DNA of 64,000 bases, taken from an uncultured bacterium. GTDB taxonomy: Bacteria; Patescibacteriota; JACMRA01. The DNA lies in the NCBI GenBank assembly GCA_963784355.1, contig CAWAQU010000003.1:32001-96000 (forward strand), in the 5' to 3' direction. How positions within the stretch are numbered: the stretch's first letter is position 1; each line of letters begins with the position of its first letter. This document shows, piece by piece, positions 1 through 21,360 of this stretch. The position numbers were made by a program, and so were the translations under genes. The notes under the pieces are model-generated. The model was not told the origin of the DNA. It saw only the letters and a list, made by a program, of their open reading frames with translations, and did no database searches.

Positions 1-63
1 AATTAATTTGAATGACTTAATTATCTCAAGTTCTGATTTTATGAAATTAATAGTTTTTGACAT
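1..63 (-). CDS. Partial small ORF (runs off window edge), paralog of 19579..19734
   Basis: Manual translation from ATG at 63: MSKTINFIKSELEIIKSFKLI, matching MSKNFYIINEGLEIIKSFRLI at 19579; same position relative to the methyltransferase gene. Confidence 0.6.
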   Translation of the reverse strand, partial: MSKTINFIKSELEIIKSFKLI

Positions 64-212
64 AAGCTTGTAATTATGGTAGTACCTTTAGATGTCTTAG
101 GTTTTGACAATACATACTATTTGAAGTTTGAGTCATTTAATCAATTTTGCTAGTTGATTAGTACCTACACTTTTTTGAAGTAATTAAGATTATCAGACTT
201 TGAATATCAAGA

Positions 213-380
213 TTATTTTTTTGGTAATTTTTCTTGATTAAATATTGTTAATATTTTCTGCCTTAATTTATTTATTTGCTTCAAACTGAGTTTTGGACTC
301 AACTTAAAGCTTAGTTCAAATTCTAAGATAGACCCATAAAGGTTTTTATAAACGCTTGAAAGCTTAGAATTTTTAGACAT
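213..380 (-). CDS. Small 55-aa hypothetical protein, paralog of 19366..19554 (not in ORF track)
   Basis: Manual translation MSKNSKLSSVYKNLYGSILEFELSFKLSPKLSLKQINKLRQKILTIFNQEKLPKK; shares EFEL...LSPKL..KQIN.L with 19366..19554. Confidence 0.65.
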   Translation of the reverse strand: MSKNSKLSSVYKNLYGSILEFELSFKLSPKLSLKQINKLRQKILTIFNQEKLPKK

Positions 381-486
381 AGTTAATCTAACCTACTTTT
401 AATTAAGGTTTAATTATGAATCAAAGCTAAATTTTAGAATTTTTTGTACTAAAATTTAAAGCGATATAACCTTATAAAATTTTATA

Positions 487-1707
487 ATGTTGTCAATGAC
501 TTTTTTTAAAACACAATACATAACAAATAAGTTTAATGTTAGCACAACCACAGTTTATAACTGGATAAAGGGTGCAATAAATAACGAAAACCTTTTAAAA
601 TTAGAAAAGGTAAAAGACAAATATTATGTTATAAATTCTGAAGCAAATCTGTTTGAGATGAAAAGATTAAGCGATCAAGGAAGAAAAAACAAGCCAAGAT
701 TTAATTCTGTAAAATTGACTGCAAATCCCGACTTTTATAATATTTTTACCCCTACTCAAGTAATTGAAATTATACATGATTTAAATAATTACAATGAAAT
801 TCAACACAAATTTACATATCTTGGTATTGGAGCGAAAAGGTGGGGTCAATACGTTGAGGATACAGTAAATAAAAAAATAAGTGTTGGAACAACTAATACA
901 ACCAAAGCTTTAGAAACAGTAAATCAATTTCTACAGAATAAACTGAGTGATTCTAAAATAAACATTTTTGATATAGGTCTGGGTGATTGTTTCCCAGTTA
1001 AAAATTATTTAAACAGCTTAATTCAAAGAAACTCACTAAATGCTTATATAGGATTGGATATTAGCCAAGACATAATTAATATGGGACTAGCTAATATCAA
1101 AAAATGGTTTGGTGATTCAATTGAAGTAGATAGCCAATCTGTTGATATTGCAGGTAGTCATTTTAGAGAAATTTTGGCTAAACATGAAGATCAAGGAAGA
1201 AATGTAGTATTATTTTTGGGTTTCACAATTGAGAATTTAAGAAACAAAATTGAAACTTTATTGAATATCAAAAATTCAATGAACAATTCTGATATTCTAG
1301 TTGTTACCTATAGTTTAGATATTGATTCATCAAAACCTATTCGTTTTCCTGATTTAAAAGATTCACCTGACGAAAAATTAGGCTTAAAGAAAAGATGGAT
1401 ACCAGAATTGCTTGGAATAATGCCTTCAATGTATGATGTGTTGGATGAATACAATTATGAGTCACGAGAGCGTAGAAAATATATAATTTTCAATCATGAT
1501 ATAGAAATTGAATTTAATACAAATCTTGGTATTAAAAATGTATATTTTAGAGCAGGTGACAAATTGTTAATCTGGAGACATACTCACCACTTGTTACATG
1601 AGTTAATCAAAGATTTAGACGATTTTGGATTCAATATTGACGCCTCTATTACATCTGATGATAGAGAAGAAGTTACCCTAGTTTTAAGTATGAAAAGTAA
1701 AATTTAG
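487..1707 (+). CDS. N-terminal HTH-like domain fused to EgtD-like (Methyltransf_33-type) SAM-dependent methyltransferase, copy 1
   Basis: HTH-like start (ITNKFNVSTTTVYNWI); SAM motifs IFDIGLGDC and YIGLDIS; EgtD-like LFLGFTIEN; paralog at 18061..19272; start may be 496. Confidence 0.75.
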   Translation: MLSMTFFKTQYITNKFNVSTTTVYNWIKGAINNENLLKLEKVKDKYYVINSEANLFEMKRLSDQGRKNKPRFNSVKLTANPDFYNIFTPTQVIEIIHDLNNYNEIQHKFTYLGIGAKRWGQYVEDTVNKKISVGTTNTTKALETVNQFLQNKLSDSKINIFDIGLGDCFPVKNYLNSLIQRNSLNAYIGLDISQDIINMGLANIKKWFGDSIEVDSQSVDIAGSHFREILAKHEDQGRNVVLFLGFTIENLRNKIETLLNIKNSMNNSDILVVTYSLDIDSSKPIRFPDLKDSPDEKLGLKKRWIPELLGIMPSMYDVLDEYNYESRERRKYIIFNHDIEIEFNTNLGIKNVYFRAGDKLLIWRHTHHLLHELIKDLDDFGFNIDASITSDDREEVTLVLSMKSKI

Positions 1708-1745
1708 GTTTTTTAAAGTACAAACTAATATAATGCGCTAATTAT

Positions 1746-1779
1746 AAAAAAAGTGGGCTTAAACTTGTTAAACCCACCT
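1746..1779. terminator. Intrinsic terminator of the precursor/immunity operon copy 1, between convergent genes
   Basis: Minus strand AGGTGGGTTTAACAAGTTTAAGCCCACTTTTTTT: hairpin plus T-run; near-identical to 18009..18041. Confidence 0.8.
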
Positions 1780-1801
1780 AATTATAAATTGCTAGACTAA
1801 T

Positions 1802-1969
1802 TTACTTGATGTTCATGTAATTAAAAAGAAATACGATTATTACAAATATAAATGTAACTATATTTGCCAACCAAATCTTATCTTTAGTTTTTTTATATTT
1901 TACAATTGCATTGATGACACCAAACAGTCCTACTAGCAAACCTATAATTTGAATAACTTGAGAATACAT
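1802..1969 (-). CDS. 55-aa two-TM membrane protein, putative orphan immunity protein (not in ORF track)
   Basis: Manual translation MYSQVIQIIGLLVGLFGVINAIVKYKKTKDKIWLANIVTFIFVIIVFLFNYMNIK; two hydrophobic helices around a Lys-rich loop; starts 6 nt after the preceding ORF's stop. Confidence 0.75.
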   Translation of the reverse strand: MYSQVIQIIGLLVGLFGVINAIVKYKKTKDKIWLANIVTFIFVIIVFLFNYMNIK

Positions 1970-1975
1970 AATGTT

Positions 1976-2146
1976 TTATGTATTCTGCTTTATATACCAT
2001 ACTGTAAAAGCATAGATTATACCTACTGTTGCAAGACCTATCCGATGATACCAAAGTTTGTATTTTTCAGGAACAAGTAACTCACCTATCAATAGAAGAT
2101 TTAGTACTAGTATAAAGTTTTCATTAATAAACTTGATTAATTCCAT
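1976..2146 (-). CDS. 56-aa two-TM membrane protein, putative orphan immunity protein (not in ORF track)
   Basis: Manual translation MELIKFINENFILVLNLLLIGELLVPEKYKLWYHRIGLATVGIIYAFTVWYIKQNT. Confidence 0.7.
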   Translation of the reverse strand: MELIKFINENFILVLNLLLIGELLVPEKYKLWYHRIGLATVGIIYAFTVWYIKQNT

Positions 2147-2220
2147 AAAATTTTAAATTTTATCTTTGGCCTGTATAAAATCAACTCGTATACGAAATAT
2201 TGAACTCGAATTCATATGAC

Positions 2221-2412
2221 CTAGTTAACATTCCAATTGTTTTTTACCGACAGTACAATCCAAAATGACCAAAAGAATAAAATTAAAGCCACTCCAAGAA
2301 AATCTAAATAACCTAGTTCTTTTTTATTAATAATAGCTTTATTATAAAGTTGTTTAAGTATTATCACAGTAGCAAAAATAACTCCTGGAGTATAAATCAT
2401 TAAAGGTAACAT
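2221..2412 (-). CDS. 63-aa two-TM membrane protein, putative cognate immunity protein of copy 1
   Basis: Starts 12 nt after the precursor stop; two hydrophobic segments flanking a basic loop. Confidence 0.75.
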   Translation of the reverse strand: MLPLMIYTPGVIFATVIILKQLYNKAIINKKELGYLDFLGVALILFFWSFWIVLSVKNNWNVN

Positions 2413-2424
2413 AAAATATAATTA

Positions 2425-3795
2425 TTAACATCTTGAACCTACCCACCAGCCAGAATTCCAAGTTCTGTATAATATTGCTCCATTTCCACAAACGGAATCA
2501 TTAGCGGAAATAAACGCGGCTAGTACACCAGAATAAGCCGAAACTAACCAGCCAAAAGGCCCAAATGCAGATGCTCCAATTGAAACTAAAGTAAACCCAA
2601 GAGATACTTTAACAGCACCACAATGATCAAGTATTGTTTTAATTCCCCACCAATAAGTTTCATTTATGGTGTAAGCGTTACAAATTATAGCCTCAGTTTT
2701 AACTCCAGTAACCAAACCATCAACTAAAGCCGCTTTGCTATTAGTTGCACTAGCAATATTTCTACCCTCTACTTTTAAAAGATTACTTAGATTATTCTTT
2801 TCTGCAATAGATAGTTTATTAAACTCACCAATAGCTAACTTAACTGTTTTTTCATCGTCTTTATCTAGCTTCAATTTATTTAACTTATCTTGAGATAAAA
2901 CTATATTTCCAGTACTTTCATCAATAATTCTAATTGATTCTACATTGGTGATTACATTTTGAGATAATGGCTTTTGACTTTGTAATTCTTTAAGTTTAGC
3001 CTGCTCTTCTTTAGATAATTTTGATATTAACTCTTCAGCTACTTCTTTTGTAGCTTGCTCTTTGGATTTCTTTTCTTTAGTTACTTTATCATTAATCTTA
3101 TCATCAAATTGTTTTTGCTGAGTTTTTAACTCCTGAGTAGTTGTATATTGAATATCAACTATAGCTTTATTAAAGTCTTTACTAATTTGAGTTTTAATAG
3201 ATTCAAGTGTTTTGAGACTACCTTGCAATGATAAAGAACTAATTTTTATACTATTTGAGCCGTTATTCAATAACTTCTCCAGTAAATTCTTTTTCTTAAC
3301 ATCTTTCTTAGCTTCTTGGAGTTTAGTATTATCTGTGTTTTTCAGTACAGGTTTGATTTGTTTAGCTTTGTCTGTATTTTTGTTGTTATTTAAATTTTCT
3401 AAAGCTAACAACTGGTTGTAAAAATTATCACTGCAATAATCTGTTATTTCAGATATTACTTTAGGTGTTTCCGAATCACAAGCTAGGTTTAGCGTTTCAC
3501 CCTTAATAATACCATTAACTGCAATGATGAGTCCACTTATTGCATAATCAGTTGTAACAGGTAATTTACTAGCTAAATAACCATAACTAGCATATCCTTC
3601 TACTGTACTATTTGAATTTGTTTTACCATTAACAGTTAAATATGCTTCAGGGCTGTTAATAGCTGACAAAGTATCTGCTTGAGTTTGAACTGAAAACAAA
3701 CTTGATACTGGGGCTGTCAGGGTTGTAAAAGCAAGGAAAACCGCTGTAACTGCTGTTGCGAGCTGGAGTGGTTTGAAAGTTTTGGGTATGAACAT
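2425..3795 (-). CDS. Secreted precursor protein with variable C-terminal bacteriocin-like peptide, copy 1 (456 aa)
   Basis: Start reassigned to MFIPKTFK (3795) from paralog alignment and conserved upstream DNA; Sec-like signal peptide ending VQTQA; C-terminal 87 aa hydrophobic with 4 Cys and YWWG. Confidence 0.75.
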   Translation of the reverse strand: MFIPKTFKPLQLATAVTAVFLAFTTLTAPVSSLFSVQTQADTLSAINSPEAYLTVNGKTNSNSTVEGYASYGYLASKLPVTTDYAISGLIIAVNGIIKGETLNLACDSETPKVISEITDYCSDNFYNQLLALENLNNNKNTDKAKQIKPVLKNTDNTKLQEAKKDVKKKNLLEKLLNNGSNSIKISSLSLQGSLKTLESIKTQISKDFNKAIVDIQYTTTQELKTQQKQFDDKINDKVTKEKKSKEQATKEVAEELISKLSKEEQAKLKELQSQKPLSQNVITNVESIRIIDESTGNIVLSQDKLNKLKLDKDDEKTVKLAIGEFNKLSIAEKNNLSNLLKVEGRNIASATNSKAALVDGLVTGVKTEAIICNAYTINETYWWGIKTILDHCGAVKVSLGFTLVSIGASAFGPFGWLVSAYSGVLAAFISANDSVCGNGAILYRTWNSGWWVGSRC

Positions 3796-3906
3796 ATGTA
3801 TAAAACAAATATATTTTTTAAAAGCTAAGAATCTGTACAGAAATTCAAGCTGATTGTGCCTATTTGTTATAAATCCTCTTGTCAAGATACTTAAAAGTAT
3901 CATTTT
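3796..3906 (-). promoter_or_regulatory. Conserved promoter/operator region of precursor copy 1
   Basis: TTGACA at 3880-3885 (minus); dyad GATAC-N6-GTATC at 3886-3901; dyad centred on TCTGTACAGA at 3823-3851; highly similar to 16263..16372. Confidence 0.65.
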
Positions 3907-3963
3907 GGGTAAAATGTGCATGAAAGACCTTTAAAATTGTGTATGTTACTCATACTAGCTTTT

Positions 3964-4251
3964 TTATAGGAAGTTGGATAAAATATTAAAAATGAAAGAA
4001 AATCTACCGGAAGTCTTTGACTCTAAAAATCTATCTCTATAAATTTCAAATTCAGGATATTTTTCCGAAAACTCATTTAATATAGCCAACTGCTCCTCGT
4101 CTGTAAGATTTTGAACTTGATCTTTAATAAAGTCTTTACCATTTTCTGCACTATCACTTTCTTTAATACCTTTTATACTCTTAATTATAGCAATTAAATA
4201 TTGCTGCTGCTCTTCAGTTAAGTTAGGTAAATTGTCTATTGATATGCTCAT
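3964..4251 (-). CDS. 95-aa hypothetical protein, paralog of 20084..20371
   Basis: Same length and about three-quarters identical (by eye) to 20084..20371. Confidence 0.8.
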   Translation of the reverse strand: MSISIDNLPNLTEEQQQYLIAIIKSIKGIKESDSAENGKDFIKDQVQNLTDEEQLAILNEFSEKYPEFEIYRDRFLESKTSGRFSFIFNILSNFL

Positions 4252-4496
4252 ACCGAGTATCTAATAATAAAAATTATATGTGATCAAGCTGCATAACGGG
4301 CCTTTAAACCCGTTTAACTAAATTCACAACTTGCAATTTATCTGAGTCAACTAAAAGTGACTTTACAAAGCTCATTTCTCCGTCATTATCGTTGGGGCTA
4401 AAACTAACCATTCCAGCTATAATATGAGCATTATTTATTACATTTATAAAAGCTTTAATTAGTCTAAATGATAAAATCTTGCCGTTATCTGCATAT

Positions 4497-5536
4497 TAAC
4501 CCAAATCACGAAAATAAATTAATCCAACAAATTCAATCAATCTTAAAACAATCTTAGAACAACCATCTTTACTTCAAACTTAAATTTGAACTCTTAGACT
4601 CCTATACTTTTACTTCAAACTTTACTAAATTAAGACAACAAAAAAGGGTGCAAGTACATGACTACAAACACCCAAAATCAATCTACGGAAATTTTACAAA
4701 TCAGACAAGTACATAATTTCTTTCTTCAGTTTTATCAGGAAAAGAAGTGGAAAAACAAAGGTAGGCCATTAACTTTAAAACCTCCGGATATAGCTACAAT
4801 TACCCTAATCCAAAAACATTACCAGATTAAAACTCTTAAATCACTTCACAATTTACTGAAAGAAAAATATACAGATATATTTCCAAAACTTCCGGCATAT
4901 CAAAACTTTGTAATCATAATGAATAAAAGTAGTACTTTTCTCCTAAGCATATTGCTTTTAGTTTTACAAGCAGGTAAGCCTTATCTTACTAAGGTCAAAT
5001 TCATTGACTCAACTCCTGTACCGGTCTGTAAAGTATATAGAAGTAAAGGGCATAAAACAATGAAACTATTAGCCAGTAAGAAAAAGAGTACTACAGGCTG
5101 GTTCTATGGATTAAAACTACATCTAATTTGTGATGAGAATTATCATTTAGCGTGTTTTAAATTCACAACAGGATCAGTTGATGATAGAATAGTTTTAAAT
5201 GAGTTTATGGAAAAAATTAGGTTTACAAATTCAACTTTAGTAGCAGATGCAGGATATGTATCAAAGCAGTATGAAAGTAAGTTTTGGAATTCAGGAACAT
5301 ATTTTCTAACAGCAACAAAAGCTAATATGAAAGTATTGGCTAGTATATACCAACAAAAGCTAATGAATATGAGATCAAAGATAGAGACAGTATTTTCAAT
5401 ATTAAAAGATAAGTATCAGTTGATTACTTCAGTACCAAGATCAATAAACGGGTATTTAGCTCATTACGTTAGAAGTTTGTTTGGGTATGTATTTTGTGGA
5501 ATAGAGGGGTTTTTGGTAATTTCGTGATTTGGGTTA
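4497..5536 (+). mobile_element. IS982-family insertion sequence
   Basis: Perfect 17-bp terminal inverted repeats TAACCCAAATCACGAAA (4497-4513 / 5520-5536) containing the ACCC end typical of IS982; about 1.04 kb; single transposase. Confidence 0.9.
4658..5527 (+). CDS. IS982-family DDE transposase
   Basis: Motifs IDSTPVPVC, GWFYGLKLHLI, ADAGY, RSKIETVFSILK. Confidence 0.92.
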   Translation: MTTNTQNQSTEILQIRQVHNFFLQFYQEKKWKNKGRPLTLKPPDIATITLIQKHYQIKTLKSLHNLLKEKYTDIFPKLPAYQNFVIIMNKSSTFLLSILLLVLQAGKPYLTKVKFIDSTPVPVCKVYRSKGHKTMKLLASKKKSTTGWFYGLKLHLICDENYHLACFKFTTGSVDDRIVLNEFMEKIRFTNSTLVADAGYVSKQYESKFWNSGTYFLTATKANMKVLASIYQQKLMNMRSKIETVFSILKDKYQLITSVPRSINGYLAHYVRSLFGYVFCGIEGFLVIS

Positions 5537-6183
5537 GTATCCAAAAACTCTTGGTTAATTTCTTCAATTTTTGGAAACATGAAATAAATTCCTGGATTAT
5601 TTTCTCGCTCTTCTCTAAAGTTTGAAGGATATCTTACAAACCTACGATTACTATCTACATAGTTAGCAGGATAATAAAATTGTGACTTTTGATTGTATAG
5701 GGTTTTAAAGAAATTTACTTTCTGAAATTCAAATTGCTCAAGTAAATCATGATATGTCGACATTGCTATTTTGTAATGCTCCCGACTGTTACAAGTACTA
5801 GGATTTGCTAATGCCTTCCAAGCTTTAATAGCATTTCTGAGGTGGTCCATATAATCCAGCACTCTAATAATATAAAATAGGTCTTCATTTAGAAATTCAT
5901 ATGGGATATTTTTAAGTTCTTTTGGAGCCAGCTTTGTCCGGATTTCATCGTCATGATACCAAGCAACATACTCTTTATCTTTAAGCTTTGGTTCTGGATA
6001 TGGAAATTTCCATTCGGTCGATACAAATTTTTCATTAGAATCTAAGTCTTTTATATCTTTTTCTATCCATTTAGCGGGCAGCCTATGTGTACCTGAATTA
6101 TCATGAGTTGCTGCTTTAATCTCTTTTTTTGGCATTTGCTTTCTATCAAGAGATGAAACCCATTTTTCAGCCTTTCCGTTCAT
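5464..6183 (-). pseudogene. Hypothetical protein probably truncated by the IS982 insertion
   Basis: The ORF reads across the IS right end at ~5536; its last ~23 residues are encoded by IS DNA. Confidence 0.55.
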
Positions 6184-6325
6184 ATTGCTATAAAAATTAA
6201 TATTTTCTTATTATAGCATAATTTTAAGCTCTTGTACAAAACTGAGTAAAAGAGTGTATTGGATGGTTAGGAGTTCGTGTTACCAACTAACTATAAATCA
6301 ATTATTTCACATTATGACTTAGTAT

Positions 6326-7057: not shown

Positions 7058-7073
7058 ATGGGTTAATTTTTTA

Positions 7074-13000: not shown

Positions 13001-16000
13001 GTATTTCCTTCCAAGTTTGCCCATCTAAATTTTGCAACAGGGAAACATGATAGCCTTTTGGATTTGTTCCTAAGTGAAAACCTGAAGTTTGAGACAAATC
13101 ACCAATCAGATCGGGATCTTGAATTTGAAACTGGATTTTCGGATTTTTATTATTATCTGCATTTTTTAATAGACCACTTGGTTCAATTTTCAAAATTTCC
13201 GGATTGATTTGCTCAAAATTTATTTTTAACTCAGTTTCAGGATTTGCAACAGGGTTACCTATTTTATCAATTTTATTACCTGTTCCATCGGTAGTTCTAA
13301 ATTTAAAAACATTTTGCCCGAACTCAAGTACTTTTGAAATATTAAAATTTTTGTATTCATCCACTTTTTCAGTAATATCTTGCCAAATTTCGAGTAAATT
13401 TCCGCTTACATCCGATTTAGCTATTTCCAATTTAGCTCCCTCTTCGATCACAAAATCTTTATCTTGTTTATCAGGCTGATTAAACCCTGCTACAGCTCCC
13501 TGAATATTCTGATCAGGATTATTGACCCAGGAATTGTTTTTTGGCTCCACAATAGCAATGTTGGCCCCTGTATCGTCTAAAACTAGATTGAGATTGGCTT
13601 GGGATTGAGTGGTGTCATTTGTTTGCCCTGCTTTGTCGTAAACTACAATTTGTAAATTATATGCACCATCAATCGCAAAATTGCCATCATCTCTTTTTCC
13701 GTCCCATACAAAAGAAATATTTCCTGTTGTAGAGTTGGCTGGAGCAAAGTTTGGATCACTGAAATCGCAGTTTTGTAATTGTTTTTCGTTAATATTACAA
13801 ATGGTAACAGTTTTGATAATGTTGTTTTGACTATCCTTGATTTTCAACTCACTTCGGGCAAAGTTTTTTTCGCTATATTCGAAATTTACATTTATTTTAT
13901 CTTTTATACCACTACTGGTAGTATTGCCCGGTGAGAATCTCTGCAAATCCAGCTTGGAGTCGGTAATTACAGGTAAAGTTGCATCTTGGGTAGAACTCAC
14001 TACTTTGGACCATGCTGAAATGTTGCCGTAATTGGGGGAATTATTCAGGCTTCGATCTCTGGCTTTTGCTCTATAATAGTAAGTTTGCGCATCCTCAAGC
14101 CCCGGAATTTCAAAAGAAACAGGCTGTGATACACCGTTAATTATACTTCCGTTTGTTTGGAATATACCTAATTTTTTGCTGTTATCTTGGAAACTTGAAT
14201 CCTGAGACACTTCTAAAAAATAGACAATATTGTCCGGTGAAGCTATATTATCACTAGAATTTTTATTCAATTTAAGCTCAATTTGATTCCCGGGTGAAAA
14301 TTCAGGCAAATTCGGCACATCCGGAATTTCCGGCGGAGTAGTATCAACTTTGATAAATTTAGAAGGAGTGGAATTTGCATTACTTTCAGTATTGTATTCA
14401 TCTCGTAAAACCGGACGCCAGTAATAACTTCCATCACCCACAACACGCCCAAAATCAGCCTGATTATAGTAGTATCCTGGTTGCCACAAATAGGGGTTGT
14501 TCAAATCCCACCAATTTTGGTTATTCTGAGATAATTGGATTTTTGCAGTAGCTTTGTTATTAATGTCATTATTTTGATGATCTCCATCTTGAATATTTCC
14601 TACCCTAAAATTCACTTGCATGTTTCCACCACATTGCCCACTAGCTGGATTGACAGATTGATCGCAATTTCCTATTAAATCAGAGTTATTATCAGGCGTA
14701 ATAGGTTGTGCCGGAGCCGGGGGGAAATTGGATTCATATTCTAAAACAGGTGGAGTACTAAAACCATTACAGGGTGCCAAATCAGTATTTTTCTGACAAA
14801 AGACTACACCTTTATACTCATCTTCGTTGTAAGATTTCAAGCCCAAAACCACTTTATTTGTGCCCAGTTGGGTATTTACTAAATCTTTAATATCACTACT
14901 TTCTCGCACAGATATTTGAGCGTTGCTATTGTATTGAGGAAAATTTAAATTGCCGTAACTTGAACCTAAACTAGGTTGATTTGCCCAGCTAGTACTATTT
15001 TCAGAAAAATTATCTCCATTTACTCTAAAAATACCTGCACTAAAAGGACCACTGGTAGTACCGTAATGACTTACCTTTAACTTTGCCGAGATTACAGGAA
15101 CTTCCGGACCTGCAAATTTTAGAAAAGTTCGGCTGTCCATATACCACGGCTGTCCAGGAACTGTCACTTCATGATAATTTCCAACTACTCTAGGTTTTTT
15201 GAAATATTGTGGCGTGGTAGCCGTTGAACTCACAAAAGTATCTTCAGTTGGTGTTTTTACCTCAATTCCAGGATCAATCACAATCGGAAATGTTCTATCT
15301 TTGGAATATAAAAACTCTTGATTTGGCATGATACTCAAACTTTTACTAGTCTGATCAAACTCTATCTTTTCCTCTTTGCTATCAAGCTTTCCATCAAAAA
15401 TGACTGCCTGATTTAACTTTATTTCTTGAGCAAGATTATTGAATTTAAGGTTATTTTGTTTTGAAAAATCCAATTGCTTGTTTGTAGTTATTTCAAATAC
15501 CAACTTACTCAAATCATTATTTAAAGCTTGGAAGTTATTCAAAATTAATTCTTTGACAAACCCTTCAGACTGAACAGTAAATTTTAAATCAATATCAGGC
15601 AAAACTTGCTTATAAACAATGCTATTTTTGGTAATTATGGGAGGTTGTTGGCTTATCAATTGCTGTTTACCCACAAAAATTTTAGAAATATTGTACTCTA
15701 AATCTTGAGTTTTGAAACTTACCCCATTTTCTAGATTATTACTGAAGTAAACTTTAAAGTCATTGGCTTTGTTTTCAAAATCCCAGTTTTTTTGACTACT
15801 TGGCACAATGGAATTATCAACCTCCAACCAATTAGTATTTGATTTGAAGTGAACTTTGTCAGCAAAAGACTGAGTTTTATATCTGTAACCAAGAGGCTTG
15901 CCGGTATCTACAATTTTAAAAATTTTAGTAGTAGAAGTCCGCAACTCCAAAATTTCTTCCTGTACCCCTTCCAAAGATTTTTGATTGGCAAATACTGGTA

Positions 16001-16097
16001 AATTTGGTAGAAAGATTTGACCTAAGAGCAAAACTGATATCAAACTTAATAGTACCGATTTTAATATATTCTCGGTGCTCTTTTTTAAAGCAAACAT
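7074..16097 (-). CDS. Giant (~3000 aa) secreted multidomain protein: DNRLRE-like and Ig/FN3/FlgD-like repeats, M23 peptidase, C-terminal lipase-like alpha/beta hydrolase
   Basis: Signal peptide; recurring D.AGN, DTT.P and WDG...DG.Y Ig-like motifs; M23 motifs HTGVD and GNSTGAHLHFEIR; lipase-like THGW, VVGHSLG, ALDP; probable start MFALKK at 16097. Confidence 0.85.
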   Translation of the reverse strand: MFALKKSTENILKSVLLSLISVLLLGQIFLPNLPVFANQKSLEGVQEEILELRTSTTKIFKIVDTGKPLGYRYKTQSFADKVHFKSNTNWLEVDNSIVPSSQKNWDFENKANDFKVYFSNNLENGVSFKTQDLEYNISKIFVGKQQLISQQPPIITKNSIVYKQVLPDIDLKFTVQSEGFVKELILNNFQALNNDLSKLVFEITTNKQLDFSKQNNLKFNNLAQEIKLNQAVIFDGKLDSKEEKIEFDQTSKSLSIMPNQEFLYSKDRTFPIVIDPGIEVKTPTEDTFVSSTATTPQYFKKPRVVGNYHEVTVPGQPWYMDSRTFLKFAGPEVPVISAKLKVSHYGTTSGPFSAGIFRVNGDNFSENSTSWANQPSLGSSYGNLNFPQYNSNAQISVRESSDIKDLVNTQLGTNKVVLGLKSYNEDEYKGVVFCQKNTDLAPCNGFSTPPVLEYESNFPPAPAQPITPDNNSDLIGNCDQSVNPASGQCGGNMQVNFRVGNIQDGDHQNNDINNKATAKIQLSQNNQNWWDLNNPYLWQPGYYYNQADFGRVVGDGSYYWRPVLRDEYNTESNANSTPSKFIKVDTTPPEIPDVPNLPEFSPGNQIELKLNKNSSDNIASPDNIVYFLEVSQDSSFQDNSKKLGIFQTNGSIINGVSQPVSFEIPGLEDAQTYYYRAKARDRSLNNSPNYGNISAWSKVVSSTQDATLPVITDSKLDLQRFSPGNTTSSGIKDKINVNFEYSEKNFARSELKIKDSQNNIIKTVTICNINEKQLQNCDFSDPNFAPANSTTGNISFVWDGKRDDGNFAIDGAYNLQIVVYDKAGQTNDTTQSQANLNLVLDDTGANIAIVEPKNNSWVNNPDQNIQGAVAGFNQPDKQDKDFVIEEGAKLEIAKSDVSGNLLEIWQDITEKVDEYKNFNISKVLEFGQNVFKFRTTDGTGNKIDKIGNPVANPETELKINFEQINPEILKIEPSGLLKNADNNKNPKIQFQIQDPDLIGDLSQTSGFHLGTNPKGYHVSLLQNLDGQTWKEIPLYNDGNNLTNGNPKLADDLNCVQAGGTQNLVNCQIQLNNLQPDGKYKVYLKIKDKAGNAVCNKNDQQYTAILPEFKCNPENQPVADKIQNLDNEFVIDTHTYLQNKSPINQAIVNHSLNGFEGAGEKGSTVEISNDLLGRKIVFKLEPEANNTLPNEFDLNDKNVSLRTFTTESEKLSVICDDLLDIDQNPETSPVSVCKFKINLLQKTNYTSSTINPNNSPKKAINRNLVKLIDPASNALESEIILNVDLYSINLSINPDLTNISPNGDGRQDGIFFATNLVNPNNPADIAQIQKYNLKISNKSTNKVVREFTGNALPPMIEFDGKDGNNNWISDGNYDYDLEVETTDGVRVKVPDQTFSAYTKLLDKVVITSPRNNYVTTRGVINIQGQAPVNTPNSGYGGYLRGKTIVDICIDIVLSPNTVSCDLVKTADVDENGFFSTVVVLPSSSVTNQIYFISAIAKDAYGNQTPKSDEIKIILDTTESIKNFNITPTFQGLNSKQEIDDFLSGKISLSQIRSLQLKSTVSQNTEALKLEYADYTNLPELPGTDKRTGYTDVFDPTGRIAVINNQVEDDIKFNPLNDARVKKDHSPKKPKDLEPNNCNQTECVWIKNYPIPFFFSGGQYEVMASGYKGESINQKSAGFVLDGRITSAPRVLRQEKKSGEGKYYEMKEFQNKFYTNSTRIRLTGVADPEAKLKIYSGSKLFTEIIVPVTGIWQVELNLPDVENLYNLDLEASLSDKASTKSLEPLQVVYDKTNLGLESVKTSVPDKGINPWVFTGDRVDFKLVAKEYMDYCDLIKEDSFIQTLISTDSKIFQESINVERKSEGIYQPLIQCSDLAGNSTIFTNDKNRTLLDGAPVVIYPVGVLNYSSKAREDSLDFRLFIDNTRPDVSEFNLDNWGDNKNGIEADGEFPEKDRLVDTFVIRKDYITLGGYGERNQRLQLYLVQKNQTQIKLPIIEIGPQGCSRQNGQDKILGGLTVKFNRNCRWNYEFKFADNGLSPLGIPQNWYVLQGQVIDLAGNTSDFNKSLTIYHDADAPKNHLMKNITSVNFGPIIDYPQKGITRDIQIKLDHEGERQADMEYEIIRQENDRMRQTVFRNGADGYGNAVLNLGLQRRDDEVSNCTRIIDTRRLGICQDGNYLVKMRAVDTAGNAGSWLETRLERDTVAPRKPTLDLDTTGDILAQFISLQIKGEKDVKADIAITNSKGGVSNLNVTLNNQGIYENTDLVGQLQCGKTEYVITVKLIDRAGNISDESVKKITTKECPKCGYGGNDGVYKKPLHSEDAYVGFPYGYSQQYFNKTKYHTGVDYNGVLPGEPVYPAAAGVVLKTVFGFTESDKGQYDDTGRLIDTANYVLIDHGNNITSLYVHLQHEKNPLVKPGDVVDTNTIIGRVGNTGNSTGAHLHFEIRKKNRAVNPTTYLGKEKDNLTPEQFQKFCVKAGEGGQEDLENWFYDNKGADVITVDFDKNWLGSGGTFRGIDFPAPKITKVVKVSEITGESSAKYRVFAVAPAKDQEIKIRLFDKDKIVEEKYEKLQSSKWIGRKNTIQLFDENITSEQENTNSSGRFSFDVETRWSSDPNNRGDKVTMQDEIWFDSKIFHETECFGGSCKLPDRSTYWKNEKSSNRIRLDKDLSRLPEYGEGVERTFTVKGDRSDTGGVLKNGDSNIGREGDIVDRNQRRIKLKFLDDEDRNMYNFGYEQGKKVWVVTHGWDDEPVGEFEKIGRNIKAEYPDDIVLLLDWSEASNNDKGQCIFGTNCPTGVARAATWIGPVADKTVEKLREWGLSDGDNLKVVGHSLGSILSGEMAERFGKKPDLIALDPPAEVAGKYNVYLNPDQKRKDFKEYSDFSRAFVGKRSLAGNQEYAKSASESFRMDFGSLYDTGSEHGWVVQSWQRMNREKAILGDIDLVLDIKDFDLHNNWQKEKIDTCYKFVIIPYECKKQAYDGHNGSLIINKPNSIDQLKVIINDRESTYYPK

Positions 16098-16262
16098 AAA
16101 CTGTAACAAAAAATTAATTGTACATATTAAGCACAAAAAAACATTCTTTGCAACACCCTAAGTGTAGCATTGTATAAATAAAATAGATTTTTTGAAGTGT
16201 AAAATAAAATTCACAAATTCAAACACCCATATTTTTAAAGCCTGCTCACACACATTTCACTT

Positions 16263-16372
16263 AAAATGATACATATATATGTCTTGACAAGAGATTATAT
16301 AATAAATAGGCACAGTTAGCTCGAATTTCTGTACAGATTCTTAGCTTTTTATAATATATTTGTTTTATACAT
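16263..16372 (+). promoter_or_regulatory. Conserved promoter/operator region of precursor copy 2
   Basis: TTGACA 16284-16289; GATACATATATATGTC abutting it; dyad AGCTCGAATTTCTGTACAGATTCTTAGCT 16318-16346. Confidence 0.65.
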
Positions 16373-17746
16373 ATGTTCACACTCAAACCTCTCAAGCTCG
16401 CAACAGCGGTCACCGCATTTTTTCTTGCTTTTTCCACCCTTGCGGCTCCAGTATCAAGTTTGTTCTCAGTTCAAACTCAAGCAGATACTTTATCAGCTAT
16501 TAACAGCCCTGAAGCATATTTAACTGTTAATGGTAAAACAAATTCAAATGGTACAGTGGAAGGTTATGCTAGCTATGGTTACTTAACTAGTAAATTACCC
16601 ATTAGTACTGATTATGCAGTAAGTGGATTATCAATTGCAGTAAATGGTATTATTAAAGGTGAGACGCTTAACCTAGCTTGTGATTTAGAAACACCTAAAG
16701 TAATATCTGAAGTAACAGATTATTGTAGTGATAATTTTTACAATCAATTATTGGCTTTAGAAAATTTGAATAATAACAAAGGCTTAGATAAAGCTAAACA
16801 AATCAAACCTGTACTGAAGAATACAGATAGCAACAAACTCCAAGAATCCAAAAAAGATGTTAAGAAAAAGAATTTATTAGAGAAGCTACTCTCAAACAAC
16901 AGCTCTTCAAACAGTGTAAAAATCAGCTCTTTGTCACTTCAAGGAAGTATTAAAATACTTGAAACAATTAAAACACAAATTAGTAAAGATTTTAATAAGG
17001 CTACAGTAGAAATACAATATACTACTACTCAAGAGTTAAAGATTCAACAAAAACTTATTGAAGATAAAATTAATGATAAGGTTACTAAAGAAAAGAAATC
17101 TAAGGAGCAAGCTACAGTAGAAGTTTTAGACCAGTACTTAAAACAATTTTCAGCAAATCAGCAAAATGGTAACTTAGGTAATATTTCTAAAAAAACAGTA
17201 GAAAAGGTAGAATCTATTAAAACTATTGATGAGAACACAGGTAATGTTGTTTTATCTCAAGATAAGCTAAACAAGCTGAAATTAGCTAAAGTTGAAGAAA
17301 ATTCTGTAAAACAAGCTATTACTGAATTTAATAAGTTATCAATAGCGCAAAAAAGTAATTTAAATAATGTTTTAAATGAAGAGGGTAAGAATATTACTAG
17401 TGGAGTTAATAACAAAACAGCTTTAGTAAGTGGTTTGGTTGGTGGGGTTAAGGCTGAAGCAGGCTGGTGTAGTAGTTATGTACCTTTGTATTGGTATTGG
17501 TGGGGCGTAGATGCTCATATTACACAATGTAATATTGATACGTTTAATTGGGTTGGTGGTGGATATGCTACCATTATGGGTGCATTAGCCGCAACACCAT
17601 GTGGATGGTTTTGTGGTACACTAGCCATTATAATGGGTTTGGAATTAGGATATATTAACTGGTTAAATAGTAGATGTGGTGGAAATGGAGTTATGCTACA
17701 CTATGTATATAGAGGCCCTGTTTATTGGTTCTGGACTGTTTGTTAA
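16373..17746 (+). CDS. Secreted precursor protein with variable C-terminal bacteriocin-like peptide, copy 2 (457 aa)
   Basis: N-terminal ~360 aa highly similar to 2425..3795; after GVKAEA a divergent 94-aa Trp/Gly-rich peptide with 6 Cys. Confidence 0.8.
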   Translation: MFTLKPLKLATAVTAFFLAFSTLAAPVSSLFSVQTQADTLSAINSPEAYLTVNGKTNSNGTVEGYASYGYLTSKLPISTDYAVSGLSIAVNGIIKGETLNLACDLETPKVISEVTDYCSDNFYNQLLALENLNNNKGLDKAKQIKPVLKNTDSNKLQESKKDVKKKNLLEKLLSNNSSSNSVKISSLSLQGSIKILETIKTQISKDFNKATVEIQYTTTQELKIQQKLIEDKINDKVTKEKKSKEQATVEVLDQYLKQFSANQQNGNLGNISKKTVEKVESIKTIDENTGNVVLSQDKLNKLKLAKVEENSVKQAITEFNKLSIAQKSNLNNVLNEEGKNITSGVNNKTALVSGLVGGVKAEAGWCSSYVPLYWYWWGVDAHITQCNIDTFNWVGGGYATIMGALAATPCGWFCGTLAIIMGLELGYINWLNSRCGGNGVMLHYVYRGPVYWFWTVC

Positions 17747-17773
17747 TAATCTTTCATTATCTTTTATATTATT

Positions 17774-17974
17774 ATGTCTGAATTTTTTCTTTATTTCTTT
17801 ACTGATGGCATGCCATTTACTATGATAATAGCTATAAATGTCTTAATCACAATTCCGTTGCTACCTAGATTTAAAAATGATAAAGACAAACAGATACAAA
17901 TCTACAGATTAGGTTTACCTATGTTAACCTTTTTGTATGTAGTTTACTTCGGAGTAAAGGCTTTTACAAAATAA
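17774..17974 (+). CDS. 66-aa two-TM membrane protein, putative cognate immunity protein of copy 2
   Basis: Directly downstream of the precursor and before the terminator; two hydrophobic helices and a charged loop. Confidence 0.75.
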   Translation: MSEFFLYFFTDGMPFTMIIAINVLITIPLLPRFKNDKDKQIQIYRLGLPMLTFLYVVYFGVKAFTK

Positions 17975-18008
17975 AGAGTAGGTAAAGTATAACCTTGCAT
18001 AGATATTG

Positions 18009-18041
18009 AGGTGGGTTTAACACGTTTAAGCCCACTTTTTT
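18009..18041. terminator. Intrinsic terminator of the precursor/immunity operon copy 2
   Basis: AGGTGGGTTTAACACGTTTAAGCCCACTTTTTT hairpin plus T-run; near-identical to the reverse complement of 1746..1779. Confidence 0.8.
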
Positions 18042-18060
18042 GTATTGTAGAGATTTTATC

Positions 18061-19272
18061 CTAAATTTTTTTTGCTTCAGATAAAATTAGTACATGTGAC
18101 AAATCTCTTTCTAAAGCAACATTAATTATTTGTAAGTCCGATTTATCAAAATCAGAAACAACCTCCTCCAAATGGGTCATTTCATGCTTCCAAATATTAA
18201 TTTCTTGCCCTTTTGTTAATGATACTCTCTTTTCTTTGTTAAATACTTTGAAATGAATAGTATAATCTTTATCTAATTTCAAATTAAGCATTCTATTATT
18301 TGTGTTGTTATCAAATTTTGAAATTAATTCGCAATTTTTTATATCAATACCCAATAATTCTGGTATCCAAGTATTTTGACTATCTGCCTTTGGATTTTTT
18401 ACATAGCTAAAATCAACTCGATTTGATAATGAATCTAAAGTATTACTAATCATCAGTAAATCATATCGATCCATGCCTTGTCGAAAATTTTTGAGTACTT
18501 TGAGCTTATCTTCATGCATTCCGATCATACTACCCAAGTACAGCACTATATTTATATTTTTGGATCCATCTAGCTCTTCTTTTAGTGGGGTAAATATACC
18601 GTCAAAATAGGTCTTTTCTACGTCACATTCATAGCTTATAAATTCTATTTCAGGAAACCATTCGTTTATATTCCTTTTGGATATTTCATTCATTTGATTA
18701 CTTACATCAACTGCAATATATCTTTTTACTACGATATTTTTAGTTAATTGTGTAAGCCACTTTTTAACAGGATGTGAATTGCCTTGTCCGATATCAATAA
18801 TATTGATACTTTCAACGTCTTTAAGTTTGTATTTAAGATAATCTAGAGTACTGTCTAATAAATTCATTACTCTTCTAGGTGTAGGATAATCCCCGTCTAT
18901 AGCATTTAAATTGTAGTAATTATCCCAAACTTCTGCACCATCGTCAACAAAGGTAAATTTGTTTGGAATTTCACATTTTAATTCAAGATGATTTATCATC
19001 TCCCATATTGCTTCATTGCTGAAAATATCGAAAAACTTTTGATCTGGATGAACATCAAAATGTAAATCACCTCTTCTATGTTTTCTACCTTCCTCGCGAA
19101 GCTTAGATAATTCTAAATCATTATGGATATTGTCTATAATATAAACTTTATTGTTCACCTTCTCAAGTTGTAAATTATTTTTTTTATCTATACTTTTTTG
19201 TATCCAAATTGCTACTGTTGCTTTAGAAACGTTATATTTTAGTGCTACATCAGTATTCTTAATTATGCTCAT
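18061..19272 (-). CDS. HTH-like + EgtD-like SAM methyltransferase, copy 2
   Basis: VALKYNVSKATVAIWI; IIDIGQGNS; YIAVDVS; LYLGSMIG; WIPELLGI shared with copy 1. Confidence 0.75.
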   Translation of the reverse strand: MSIIKNTDVALKYNVSKATVAIWIQKSIDKKNNLQLEKVNNKVYIIDNIHNDLELSKLREEGRKHRRGDLHFDVHPDQKFFDIFSNEAIWEMINHLELKCEIPNKFTFVDDGAEVWDNYYNLNAIDGDYPTPRRVMNLLDSTLDYLKYKLKDVESINIIDIGQGNSHPVKKWLTQLTKNIVVKRYIAVDVSNQMNEISKRNINEWFPEIEFISYECDVEKTYFDGIFTPLKEELDGSKNINIVLYLGSMIGMHEDKLKVLKNFRQGMDRYDLLMISNTLDSLSNRVDFSYVKNPKADSQNTWIPELLGIDIKNCELISKFDNNTNNRMLNLKLDKDYTIHFKVFNKEKRVSLTKGQEINIWKHEMTHLEEVVSDFDKSDLQIINVALERDLSHVLILSEAKKI

Positions 19273-19365
19273 ATTATTATTAACTTGACAAAAGATAAAT
19301 TTTTTAGTTTATGTTATACGCTTAAATTTTAAGTACAAATTTTTTAAAATCAACTTTTAATCACT

Positions 19366-19554
19366 ATGCCTATTAAAGGGTTAGGCGTAACTTTGCTCAA
19401 AAAAGCCGAAAGTAAAGCTAAAAAAACTAGTTCTTTGATGACTATGCTTAAAGAATTTGAGCTAATGTATAATTTGTCTCCAAAACTAACTGTAAAACAA
19501 ATCAACACACTAAAACTACACTTTAAGCAAATTGTCAAAGGTAGAAACAACTAA
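19366..19554 (+). CDS. Small basic hypothetical protein, paralog of 213..380
   Basis: EFELMYNLSPKLTVKQINTLK matches the motif in 213..380. Confidence 0.65.
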   Translation: MPIKGLGVTLLKKAESKAKKTSSLMTMLKEFELMYNLSPKLTVKQINTLKLHFKQIVKGRNN

Positions 19555-19578
19555 AACAAGTATCATATTTAGCAGCTT

Positions 19579-19734
19579 ATGTCAAAAAACTTTTATATCA
19601 TAAATGAAGGACTCGAGATAATCAAATCATTTAGATTAATCTACTGGGTTTTGATAATCGTTATTGCTGCTATTTTAGCCCTTTTGTTTTCCCCAGATGG
19701 ATATTTCAACATTTATAAACTATTTACTAATTAA
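19579..19734 (+). CDS. 51-aa single-TM protein (not in ORF track)
   Basis: Manual translation MSKNFYIINEGLEIIKSFRLIYWVLIIVIAAILALLFSPDGYFNIYKLFTN; paralog begins at 63 (minus). Confidence 0.65.
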   Translation: MSKNFYIINEGLEIIKSFRLIYWVLIIVIAAILALLFSPDGYFNIYKLFTN

Positions 19735-19738
19735 ACGC

Positions 19739-19966
19739 ATGCCTAAGTATTACAAATATACTTCTTTATTTGGACAATCTGTAAAACTATTAAGGTTACA
19801 GCAAAACCTGACTCAGGCTGATTTAGCAAATAGAATGGGTACTAATCGCAATTATATAGTAGCAGTTGAAAAAGGGAAAGGTAACCCCACCCTTACAAAA
19901 ATTATAGATTTTGCATATGCTTTAGAAATTAGAACTTTAATTCTGCTTAGTTTTTTAGATGATTGA
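19739..19966 (+). CDS. XRE/HTH_3 family transcriptional regulator
   Basis: FGQSVKLLRLQQNLTQADLANRMGTNRNYIVAVEKGKGNPTL; probable start MPKYY at 19739. Confidence 0.88.
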   Translation: MPKYYKYTSLFGQSVKLLRLQQNLTQADLANRMGTNRNYIVAVEKGKGNPTLTKIIDFAYALEIRTLILLSFLDD

Positions 19967-19988
19967 GGGGCTGTTTTATTTGGTGCTG

Positions 19989-20033
19989 TAGCATTTTGTA
20001 GACTAAGCTTGACATCTATCATTTAAACACGCT
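19989..20033 (+). repeat. 45-bp direct repeat, copy 1 (copy 2 at 20515..20559)
   Basis: TAGCATTTTGTAGACTAAGCTTGACATCTATCATTTAAACACGCT; 2 mismatches to the second copy. Confidence 0.9.
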
Positions 20034-20083
20034 TTTTTATGATAATAAGTAGAGTAGAAAATTTTAATCTAAAGTGAATAAAC

Positions 20084-20371
20084 ATGAGCATAAATATAGA
20101 CAATTTACCTAATTTATCTAAAGACCAACAACAATATTTGATTGAAGTTATAGAGAGGACAAAGAATATTAAAAGAGATGCTGGCGAGGAGGAAAATAAA
20201 GACTTTATTAAAAATCAGGTTCAAAATCTAACAGATGAGGAGCAGTTAGTTATATTGAATAAGTTTTCGGAAAAATATCCTGAATTTGAAATATTTAGAG
20301 ACAGATTCTTGGAGTCAAAAACTTCCGGTAGAATTTCCTTTATACTTAACATATTATCCAGCTTTTTATAA
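20084..20371 (+). CDS. 95-aa hypothetical protein, paralog of 3964..4251
   Basis: Direct protein alignment by eye. Confidence 0.8.
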   Translation: MSINIDNLPNLSKDQQQYLIEVIERTKNIKRDAGEEENKDFIKNQVQNLTDEEQLVILNKFSEKYPEFEIFRDRFLESKTSGRISFILNILSSFL

Positions 20372-20514
20372 GAAACAGCAAAAACAAAATAGGTTTTTTG
20401 AAGTTCAAAATAAAATTAGTAATGCCATGATCAACCGCCTGCTGTACCAATGTTTCACTATCTTGTTGGAAGTTAATTTTAGATAATAGTCAGTAGATTT
20501 TTGCTACATATAAA

Positions 20515-20559
20515 TAGCATTTTGTAGACTAAACTTGACAGCTATCATTTAAACACGCT
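20515..20559 (+). repeat. 45-bp direct repeat, copy 2
   Basis: TAGCATTTTGTAGACTAAACTTGACAGCTATCATTTAAACACGCT. Confidence 0.9.
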
Positions 20560-20583
20560 CTCTTTGCATACTAAAATATACTT

Positions 20584-21284: not shown

Positions 21285-21360
<76 letters not shown>

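Follow-up and report, generated by a model that had tools for sequence, protein, structure and literature searches.

Inverted cassettes in a patescibacterial genome as candidate polymorphic toxin-immunity loci built on an undescribed C-terminal domain

We describe a duplicated gene cassette in a 64,000-nucleotide (nt) stretch of the genome of an uncultured bacterium (GTDB lineage Bacteria; Patescibacteriota; JACMRA01; GenBank assembly GCA_963784355.1, contig CAWAQU010000003.1). This stretch, C3:32001-96000 of a 13-contig, 1.14-Mb genome with 33% guanine plus cytosine (GC) and an estimated completeness of 81%, is referred to below as the window. Each cassette encodes a precursor protein of about 457 amino acids (aa) with a Sec-type N-terminus, followed by small genes for two-helix membrane proteins. 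We propose that each cassette is a polymorphic toxin-immunity locus built on an undescribed C-terminal toxin domain, and we put the probability of this reading at roughly two in three. The tail of the precursor is read as a toxin because its homologs occupy the toxin slot of Rhs proteins, because the N-terminal and C-terminal parts of the precursors have discordant histories, and because a partner gene is conserved directly downstream. Export, toxicity, release and protection are properties predicted from sequence. The domain family, its predicted fold and its use with a Sec signal alone in a lineage of Patescibacteria are new; the polymorphic toxin-immunity logic is known.

An earlier sequence-only reading of the window had suggested a secreted, membrane-active polymorphic toxin with adjacent immunity genes that belongs to no named system. 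That core is supported by the Rhs placement, the discordant histories, a downstream small open reading frame (ORF) at 13 of 13 loci and the lack of Pfam and NCBIfam matches. Two of its additions, that the system carries its own regulator or modifier and that it includes a 95-aa gene, are not supported as stated, as described below.

Organization of the cassettes

Two inverted copies of the cassette, A (1..4251) and B (16222..20375), lie in the window and a third lies at C12:4521-8194. A repeat finder connects 2..4251 with 16222..20375 through seven inverted-repeat pairs of 74-87% complementarity, and these repeats, together with the matching genes, confirm that A and B are two inverted copies of one gene set (Table 1). 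The cassettes share the Sec-type precursor, one to four two-helix mini-genes (three in A, one in B and four in the C12 copy), a terminator that, as the earlier reading had noticed, is near identical in A and B, and a convergent methyltransferase with a helix-turn-helix (HTH) region. A and B also have in common a divergent small basic protein, a 51-aa membrane ORF and an XRE-type HTH gene. The earlier reading had not mentioned the XRE gene, and the third copy lies outside the window. Copy A extends past the left edge of the window, and its 51-aa and XRE genes are found at C3:31296-32063.

The domain in a toxin position and on exchanged carriers

Related domains are found where Rhs proteins carry their toxins. 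In P0154 the domain lies downstream of an Rhs_assc_core (51.7 bits against a cut-off of 32.5), and in P0170, a 447-aa protein of the same 90% cluster, RHS_repeat matches in three stretches (E 2.9e-19) are followed by the core, a linker and the domain. The end of a DPxG-type Rhs core directly abuts the domain in P0136 and P0171. The domain thus occurs with different carriers, which include RHS repeats and core, long forms with a Sec-type N-terminus, and short forms of 100-250 aa.

The three precursors of this genome, 456-466 aa in length, are mosaics. The ORF finder gives 498 aa for precursor A, which becomes 456 aa when the homologous start MFIPKTF is used. A and B are 64% identical overall (297/461, E 4e-180). 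Across the three copies, 70-96% of the nucleotides are identical in the stretch that begins ~150 nt 5' of the precursor start and ends where the last ~90 codons begin (~17450 in B). Identity falls to ~30% or less across the C-terminal domain and mini-genes and rises once more at the terminator and, farther on, over the 51-aa and XRE genes. The break at the domain start is sharp. The N-parts of the paralogs share 73-82% identity with a ratio of nonsynonymous to synonymous substitution (dN/dS) of 0.14-0.22; for B and the C12 paralog, identity is 82% in the N-part and 29% in the tail. The corresponding values for B and two metagenome proteins are 41.5% and 69% (P0004), and 19.9% and 45.9% (P0006). 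Because synonymous divergence is higher in the tail (1.3-1.9) than in the N-part (0.72-0.76), the tails must predate the duplication of the bodies, which means that they were replaced and did not simply evolve fast.

The earlier description of a conserved precursor N-terminus joined to a variable C-terminus is accurate within this genome and fails across genera, where conservation lies in the C-terminal domain and the N-parts vary from ~100 to ~400 aa. The C-termini do differ, as that reading had it, yet the alignment places all of them in one homologous domain family.

The same data bear on a different account, in which the tail is the membrane anchor of a surface protein, such as an adhesin, that works through its N-part, with the mini-proteins as assembly partners. 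Two membrane-length hydrophobic helices at the extreme C-terminus would suit an anchor, and the conservation of the N-part (73-82%, dN/dS 0.14-0.22) suggests that this part is functional by itself. However, an anchor would not be expected to follow RHS repeats and an Rhs core, in the position of a toxin domain, or to be swapped among unrelated N-parts. The N-parts are, moreover, highly varied or nearly missing, many members being only 100-250 aa long, and the account leaves arrays of one to five divergent small membrane genes unexplained. We consider a membrane anchor unlikely.

An undescribed domain family with a predicted helical hairpin

A profile search of 1.84e9 cluster representatives recovered 149 matches at E<=1e-3, 52 of them at E<=1e-10, nearly all confined to the tail (the last ~95 residues) and at the extreme C-terminus. 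The matching proteins are mostly 100-250 aa long, and many show a high-GC-type composition. In the alignment of the six full-length precursor relatives noted below, the pattern reads small-x-Ala, Cys, ~10 residues, WWG, six residues, Cys, ~50 hydrophobic Gly/Ala-rich residues, CG..G, ~15 residues including a conserved Trp, and a terminal Cys; its second half in B is CGGNG..W..C. The C..WWG..C motif is present in 125/147 matches, a Cys lies within the last three residues in 119/147, and the domain is at the very C-terminus in 119/147. Relatives of the full-length precursor are few: a word-indexed search of 5.8e9 proteins found six, three of which are this genome's own. Weaker relatives, recognized by profile through the C-terminal part, occur in 4/25 other genomes of the same family, and across the phylum the domain was found in 3/401 sampled genomes, all three from that family.

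No Pfam, NCBIfam or PADLOC match was obtained for the precursors, mini-genes, small proteins or 95-aa protein. A credible Pfam match was likewise absent from all 143 domain members scanned, the lone ZYG-11_interact hit (E 6.6e-4) being spurious, and an NCBIfam scan of ten members returned Rhs models only. The domain profile found no relative among Protein Data Bank (PDB) sequences, its best hit (E 0.014) being an unrelated coiled coil. In the ESM Atlas the neighbors are unnamed ~100-aa Bacillota clusters (0.92), and one cluster that is 13% Bacteriocin_BacA, at 0.89, is a lead only. The hallmarks of class II bacteriocins are missing as well: with their 456-466 aa and Sec-type N-terminus the precursors are not short proteins with a GG leader, and the ORF maps of the three loci showed no gene for an ABC/C39 exporter (ORFs judged by eye, some scanned against Pfam).

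An AlphaFold2 model of the last 105 residues of B, built from a 143-row alignment, has a mean per-residue confidence (pLDDT) of 84.7 and a predicted TM-score of 0.67. Its strands span residues 20-23, 26-31, 88-93 and 98-103 and its helices residues 33-53 and 59-82, so that a pair of helices long enough to cross a membrane is predicted between two beta-hairpins. Of the conserved cysteines, one precedes the first hairpin, the next two lie where helix 1 begins and where helix 2 ends, and the last is at the C-terminus. This topology suggests two disulfides, one that closes the base of the helical hairpin and another that holds the sheet; the predicted partners are the second and third Cys, and the first and last. 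In 108 members, the segment between the second and third conserved Cys has medians of 53 aa, a mean hydropathy of 1.0, 3.5 charged residues, 35% Gly/Ala/Ser and 8 small-xxx-small motifs, and it contains a strongly hydrophobic window in 103 of them. For the tail model Foldseek returned nothing at E<=0.001 (best 2.9), and an exhaustive structural aligner returned generic helical hairpins within noise (best VIA Z 5.6). The full-length model of B (pLDDT 73.2) shows an alpha/beta N-domain and helical segments, with residues 344-365, which contain VKAEA, as a low-confidence linker. Its N-part fold was unmatched, the best Foldseek E being 0.17 and the best Z 4.5 for a ferredoxin-like fold, within noise.

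Two further observations concern the family. A second conserved stretch, ..A(V/I)xx(F/Y)NxLP..R/K.., lies upstream of the toxin domain in low- and high-GC members (50/114 by a loose pattern) and may be a pre-toxin or handling region. In locus L030 (G012:C17, 1498..2142) a toxin-domain frame of 214 codons lacks an ATG start and a signal peptide and adjoins an integrase-like fragment and then a multi-helix membrane ORF; this looks like an orphan toxin/immunity cassette. A profile scan of contigs with a 10-row domain alignment gave no confirmed locus.

Downstream mini-genes as candidate immunity genes

At all 13 distinct loci for which context is available, the toxin-domain gene is accompanied by a small hydrophobic ORF of the same orientation, whose start lies between -83 and +27 nt from the stop of that gene. 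These loci come from five related genomes (three in this genome, two in G021, three in G014, of which one is a fragment, one in G016 and two in G012, of which one is without an ATG start and signal peptide) and from two distinct metagenome loci, of 48-51% and 64% GC. A simple hydropathy rule assigns two or more hydrophobic segments to 20 of 23 mini-ORFs and a single one to the other three.

The first mini-genes of A, B and C12 are mutually unrelated, and the toxin tails differ likewise. The C12 array additionally holds B-type and A-type mini-genes: B_m1 is 73% identical to the fourth C12 mini-gene (dN/dS 0.24), and A_m2 is 76% identical to the second, with proportions of nonsynonymous and synonymous differences of 0.15 and 0.76 (pN and pS). 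Judged from these substitutions, the mini-genes are under purifying selection, and the two that allow such a test, B_m1 and A_m2, are real genes. By analogy, the pattern of the arrays is that of cognate plus orphan immunity genes in polymorphic toxin loci (PMC3482391). A complex prediction for domain B with B_m1, made without control runs, scored 0.00 and counts neither for nor against the pairing.

A separate methyltransferase module beside the toxin cassettes

The methyltransferases belong to Methyltransf_33, and the family profile aligns with nearly the whole length of EgtD structures (E 3.6e-9). As a single sequence the protein had no match in the PDB, and scores of 31.9 and 39 bits are far below the cut-off of 290.9 for the EgtD equivalog TIGR03438. 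The sequence support for the N-terminal HTH is weak (HTH_11 E 0.024, below the Pfam cut-off). Methyltransferases A and B are merely 31% identical, and both this protein and its small partner vary greatly in sequence although the flanks are conserved, as if they formed a second specificity pair. Among the eight cassette proteins compared with PADLOC, only XRE matched, and only generic HTH and restriction-modification control-protein models; the small basic protein matched neither Pfam nor PADLOC.

The genome holds eight paralogs of the methyltransferase (25-39% identity), on C3, C9, C10, C11 and C12 (loci L004-L011). Six have a divergent small basic protein, five have an XRE gene and three have a toxin. 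The five toxin-free paralogs adjoin, as judged by eye, prophage-like, DUF262-like, surface-protein or housekeeping genes. In a sample of 401 genomes of the phylum, 20, this one included, have the methyltransferase: 14 of the 23 sampled from the same family, where several copies are frequent, the only one sampled from the sister family, and four others. The pairing of the methyltransferase with the small basic protein recurs in relatives. The methyltransferase, small protein and XRE gene are, on this distribution, a separate multi-copy module, found family-wide, that lies beside toxin cassettes in this genus. The earlier claim of a regulator or modifier belonging to the system is thus not supported, given the five of eight toxin-free paralogs and the family counts of 14/23 for the methyltransferase and 4/25 for the toxin. 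The module is probably regulatory and no dedicated modifying enzyme, and it may mark or regulate variable islands in the family. The HTH-EgtD-like family, with its eight copies here, is rare in the phylum sample outside this bacterial family.

It is also conceivable that the methyltransferase and small protein are an independent specificity pair, acting in signaling or addiction, that simply shares hypervariable islands with the toxin genes, and that the duplication reflects island dynamics. The mosaic conservation would fit, since the toxin N-part, terminator, 51-aa and XRE genes are 70-96% identical in nucleotide sequence and the methyltransferase and small protein between them have diverged to 31% identity in protein, and so would the unrelated cargo (prophage-like, DUF262-like, surface-protein and ribosomal protein genes) beside copies of the module. 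This account is, however, compatible with the toxin-immunity reading, and PADLOC offers no match in its favor; as an explanation of the whole arrangement we find it rather improbable.

A modified bacteriocin, whose C-terminal peptide is cleaved and then methylated by the EgtD-like protein as a tailoring enzyme, would account for the presence of the methyltransferase within a few hundred bases of 5/5 toxin loci in this genus (three here and two in G021, in three different arrangements) and for the near-complete alignment of its enzyme domain with EgtD. Tailoring is nonetheless hard to reconcile with the toxin-free paralogs and the unequal family distributions just given, and no methyltransferase was seen at eight toxin loci outside the genus, several of which are on contigs of <3 kb. 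The enzyme is, moreover, cytoplasmic with an N-terminal HTH and its supposed substrate is Sec-exported, and its constant partner is the small basic protein and not the toxin. We therefore think it improbable that the peptide is tailored in this way.

That the cassette is functionless, a duplicated hypothetical gene followed by chance hydrophobic ORFs in AT-rich DNA, deserves almost no credence: the GC content of 27-31% does favor ORFs rich in Phe, Ile, Leu and Lys, but purifying selection on the N-part and mini-genes, reading frames that are intact in all three copies, a toxin/mini-gene pairing that is kept in the locus of 64% GC, and a confident structure prediction all argue otherwise.

A possible mechanism and points that weigh against it

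If the toxin-immunity reading is correct, the ~457-aa precursor would be exported via Sec by its N-terminal signal peptide, and the last ~90 residues would be released or exposed at the flexible linker that ends in small-x-Ala (VKAEA in B). The precursor N-terminus has signal-like n, h and c regions, and an N-terminal hydrophobic segment is present in 23 of 24 long forms. Among the six closest homologs, the small-x-Ala motif ahead of the tail is A-x-A in four and T-x-A or V-x-A in two, and such a motif agrees with the -3/-1 requirement of type I signal peptidase. The four conserved cysteines would probably form two disulfides, by an oxidative folding that is feasible only outside the cytoplasm. 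The Gly/Ala-rich (glycine-zipper) helical hairpin may then insert into the membrane of a neighboring cell, either a rival or the host of the presumed epibiont, and dissipate its barrier or membrane potential through leakage or depolarization. The two-helix membrane proteins encoded directly downstream would shield the membrane of the producer, the first acting as cognate immunity, and the extra mini-genes of A and of the C12 locus could serve as additional or orphan immunity genes.

Several observations weigh against this proposal. A clear N-terminal hydrophobic segment is found in merely 63 of 114 full-length domain members. The small-x-Ala motif, by a crude scan, is present in 35 of 131, being common in low-GC members and missing from most high-GC members, and cleavage at that site is itself a guess. 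Rhs fusions account for 2 of 147 representative clusters, and most members carry no independent sign of a toxin. The three loci of this genome are paralogs and hence non-independent observations. A search for homologs of the B-type immunity protein returned this genome's two copies only. Finally, AT-rich DNA readily yields small hydrophobic ORFs, a concern that the GC-rich loci and dN/dS values answer for some of them only.

It is tempting to go further and speculate that the C..WWG..C tail is a new, widely scattered membrane-inserting toxin fold, in which two beta-hairpins clamped by disulfides hold a glycine-zipper helical hairpin, that epibionts with small genomes export via Sec alone, release at an internal Ala-x-Ala resembling a signal-peptidase site and aim at hosts or rival epibionts. 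The hypervariable HTH-EgtD-like enzyme and its basic partner would then be a second, polymorphic specificity pair, perhaps a signal or switch based on methylation, by which conflict islands in this family are gated. This combined scenario is possible, and we hold it with considerable doubt.

Relation to known systems

In polymorphic toxin systems, as set out in the parts of the survey by Zhang, Aravind et al. 2012 (PMC3482391) that we draw on here and below, the C-terminal toxin recombines among carriers that include Rhs proteins, the immunity gene lies directly downstream, and tandem arrays of immunity genes form 'polyimmunity loci'. The cassettes resemble these systems in their putatively secreted multi-domain protein, swapped C-terminal tip and downstream arrays of candidate immunity genes (PMC3482391). 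They differ in the carrier, which consists only of a Sec signal and an N-terminal region that matches no family; the copies in this genome show no type V, VI or VII secretion (T5/T6/T7), PVC or Rhs apparatus. They also differ in that the three tips of this genome are one family, whereas classical polymorphic loci often alternate unrelated enzymatic tips.

Halocin C8 is a hydrophobic, Cys-rich peptide at the C-terminus of a much larger exported precursor, and immunity to it is provided by the N-terminal part of the precursor. The likeness, which is one of description, lies in the hydrophobic Cys-rich C-terminal peptide (~75-95 residues); unlike halocin C8, the cassettes have separate membrane genes after the precursor. 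A small protein with two transmembrane helices beside a membrane-acting tip likewise recalls, by description, the CdiA-CT/CdiI pair, which differs in its type V secretion and in belonging to a diderm. The CdiA-CT of E. coli EC93 has ionophore activity. Its partner Imm-CdiI is a small immunity protein with two transmembrane helices, according to the portion of the survey that treats it (PMC3482391).

In mechanism, the closest described systems are Tox-WTIP and EsxX. Tox-WTIP is a two-helix pore-forming polymorphic tip that the survey reports in proteobacteria, with the motif RxxR in its first helix and Wx[ST]IP in its second (PMC3482391). Neither motif was found in the alignments of our domain, which, unlike Tox-WTIP, has the C..WWG..C and CG..G..W..C motifs and flanking beta-hairpins. 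In the account of EsxX of Staphylococcus aureus, as far as the sections cited here extend, a C-terminal glycine-zipper toxin depolarizes membranes and is toxic from the extracellular side, and the membrane proteins ExiCD provide immunity, also as orphan immunity genes (PMC12744356). The predicted glycine-zipper tip and the membrane immunity candidates of the cassettes are alike by description; EsxX differs in having an LXG domain and type VII export, and in additionally needing a soluble cytoplasmic immunity pair (PMC12744356).

A search of a limited library of papers, covering their main texts, found no paper on such toxin-immunity loci in Patescibacteria, also known as the candidate phyla radiation (CPR). 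These bacteria live attached to other bacteria. To our knowledge, the ways in which they harm their hosts or compete with one another are largely unknown. If the toxin-immunity reading is right, the cassettes would provide a testable antagonism factor of a CPR lineage, a non-enzymatic toxin domain that is new to Pfam and NCBIfam with at least 149 cluster representatives in low- and high-GC bacteria, and a compact model of toxin-tip swapping and immunity arrays that operates in the absence of a specialized secretion system.

Other features of the cassettes and their surroundings

A conserved 24-nt element occupies the positions 27-50 nt ahead of precursors A and B and stands farther away in the C12 copy, which has a 20-nt insertion. 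Genome-wide it occurs solely upstream of the three precursors, and as RNA its fold is insignificant (z -0.58). We regard it as a candidate operator.

Table 1. Positions of cassette features and inverted repeats in the window.
Feature	Position	Strand	Remarks
51-aa membrane ORF start, copy A	1..63	-	full ORF C3:31908-32063
Small basic protein, copy A	213..380	-	55 aa
HTH + EgtD-like protein A	487..1707	+	406 aa; PF10017 38.7 bits (cut-off 23)
Terminator-like hairpin, copy A	1751..1779	-	hairpin and T run
Mini-gene A_m3	1802..1969	-	55 aa; two hydrophobic segments
Mini-gene A_m2	1976..2146	-	56 aa
Mini-gene A_m1	2221..2412	-	63 aa; two hydrophobic segments; candidate cognate immunity
Precursor A	2425..3795	-	456 aa from the homologous start
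C-terminal domain of A	2428..2688	-	87 aa; 4 Cys; 24.5% identical to that of B
24-nt element, precursor A	3823..3846	-	same element as upstream of B
95-aa ORFan, copy A	3964..4251	-	75% identical to copy B
24-nt element, precursor B	16323..16346	+	partly palindromic; invariant in three-way upstream alignment
Precursor B	16373..17746	+	457 aa; Sec-type signal peptide, alpha/beta N-domain, helical region, flexible linker, C-terminal domain
C-terminal domain of B	17462..17743	+	residues 364-457, beginning after VKAEA; from alignments and AlphaFold2
Mini-gene B_m1	17774..17974	+	66 aa; two hydrophobic helices, K/D-rich loop; candidate immunity
Terminator-like hairpin, copy B	18008..18038	+	13 pairs, then T run; near identical to 1779..1751
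HTH + EgtD-like protein B	18061..19272	-	403 aa; convergent with toxin operon; PF10017 51.8 bits (cut-off 23)
Small basic protein, copy B	19366..19554	+	62 aa; divergent from methyltransferase; core LKEFELxYNLSPxL..Q..KL
51-aa single-helix membrane ORF, copy B	19579..19734	+	65-75% identical among three toxin loci
XRE-type HTH protein, copy B	19697..19966	+	HTH_3 E 7.6e-11; likely start ~19739, giving 75 aa; 84% identical to copy left of window
95-aa ORFan, copy B	20084..20371	+	two copies in genome
Inverted repeat	3271-3776/16383-16888		506 nt, 87%
Inverted repeat	3014-3258/16907-17151		80%
Inverted repeat	2690-2946/17204-17460		76%
Inverted repeat	3815-3947/16222-16354		79%
Inverted repeat	3960-4251/20084-20375		292 nt, 79%
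Inverted repeat	2-111/19531-19640		74%

The 95-aa gene, which the sequence-only reading had counted as part of the cassette, probably does not belong to the system: the genome has only these two copies and none at the C12 locus, and no credible match was found among 26 related genomes. Its place is also unequal, upstream of precursor A in one copy and past the XRE gene in B. A 60-nt direct repeat (19989-20048 and 20515-20574, +; 87% identical) that contains CTTGACA precedes the 95-aa gene of B and a glyoxalase/bleomycin-resistance-like gene at 20584..20991 (Ble-like_N, E 3e-10). Two matches were obtained in 0 of 100 shuffles, and the repeat may be a shared promoter or operator.

An Rfam scan of the window returned two tRNAs and nothing else: tRNA-Asn(GTT) at 21285-21360 (-), ~900 nt past the right end of cassette B, and tRNA-Arg(TCT) at 34890-34966 (+). 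Downstream of the XRE gene of copy A, at C3:25500-31200, co-directional genes encode proteins of 108, 700, 129, 273 and 613 aa, which by eye are membrane and large proteins. Just inside the inverted repeat lies a DDE transposase (4658..5527, +; DDE_Tnp_1_3, E 8e-34), and the two ORFs that follow it (239 and 259 aa) have no credible Pfam match.

Between the inverted cassettes lies a gene for a secreted giant protein of 3020 aa (7074..16136, -) with Peptidase_M23 (E 1.7e-22), CBM96 and Ig-like domains. An alternative genetic code was considered and dropped, as table 11 gives this open 3020-aa frame and intact genes throughout. Near the C-terminus of the giant protein we spotted by eye a GHSLG motif of the lipase-type nucleophile elbow, and the protein may be an epibiont effector that attacks cell wall or lipid.

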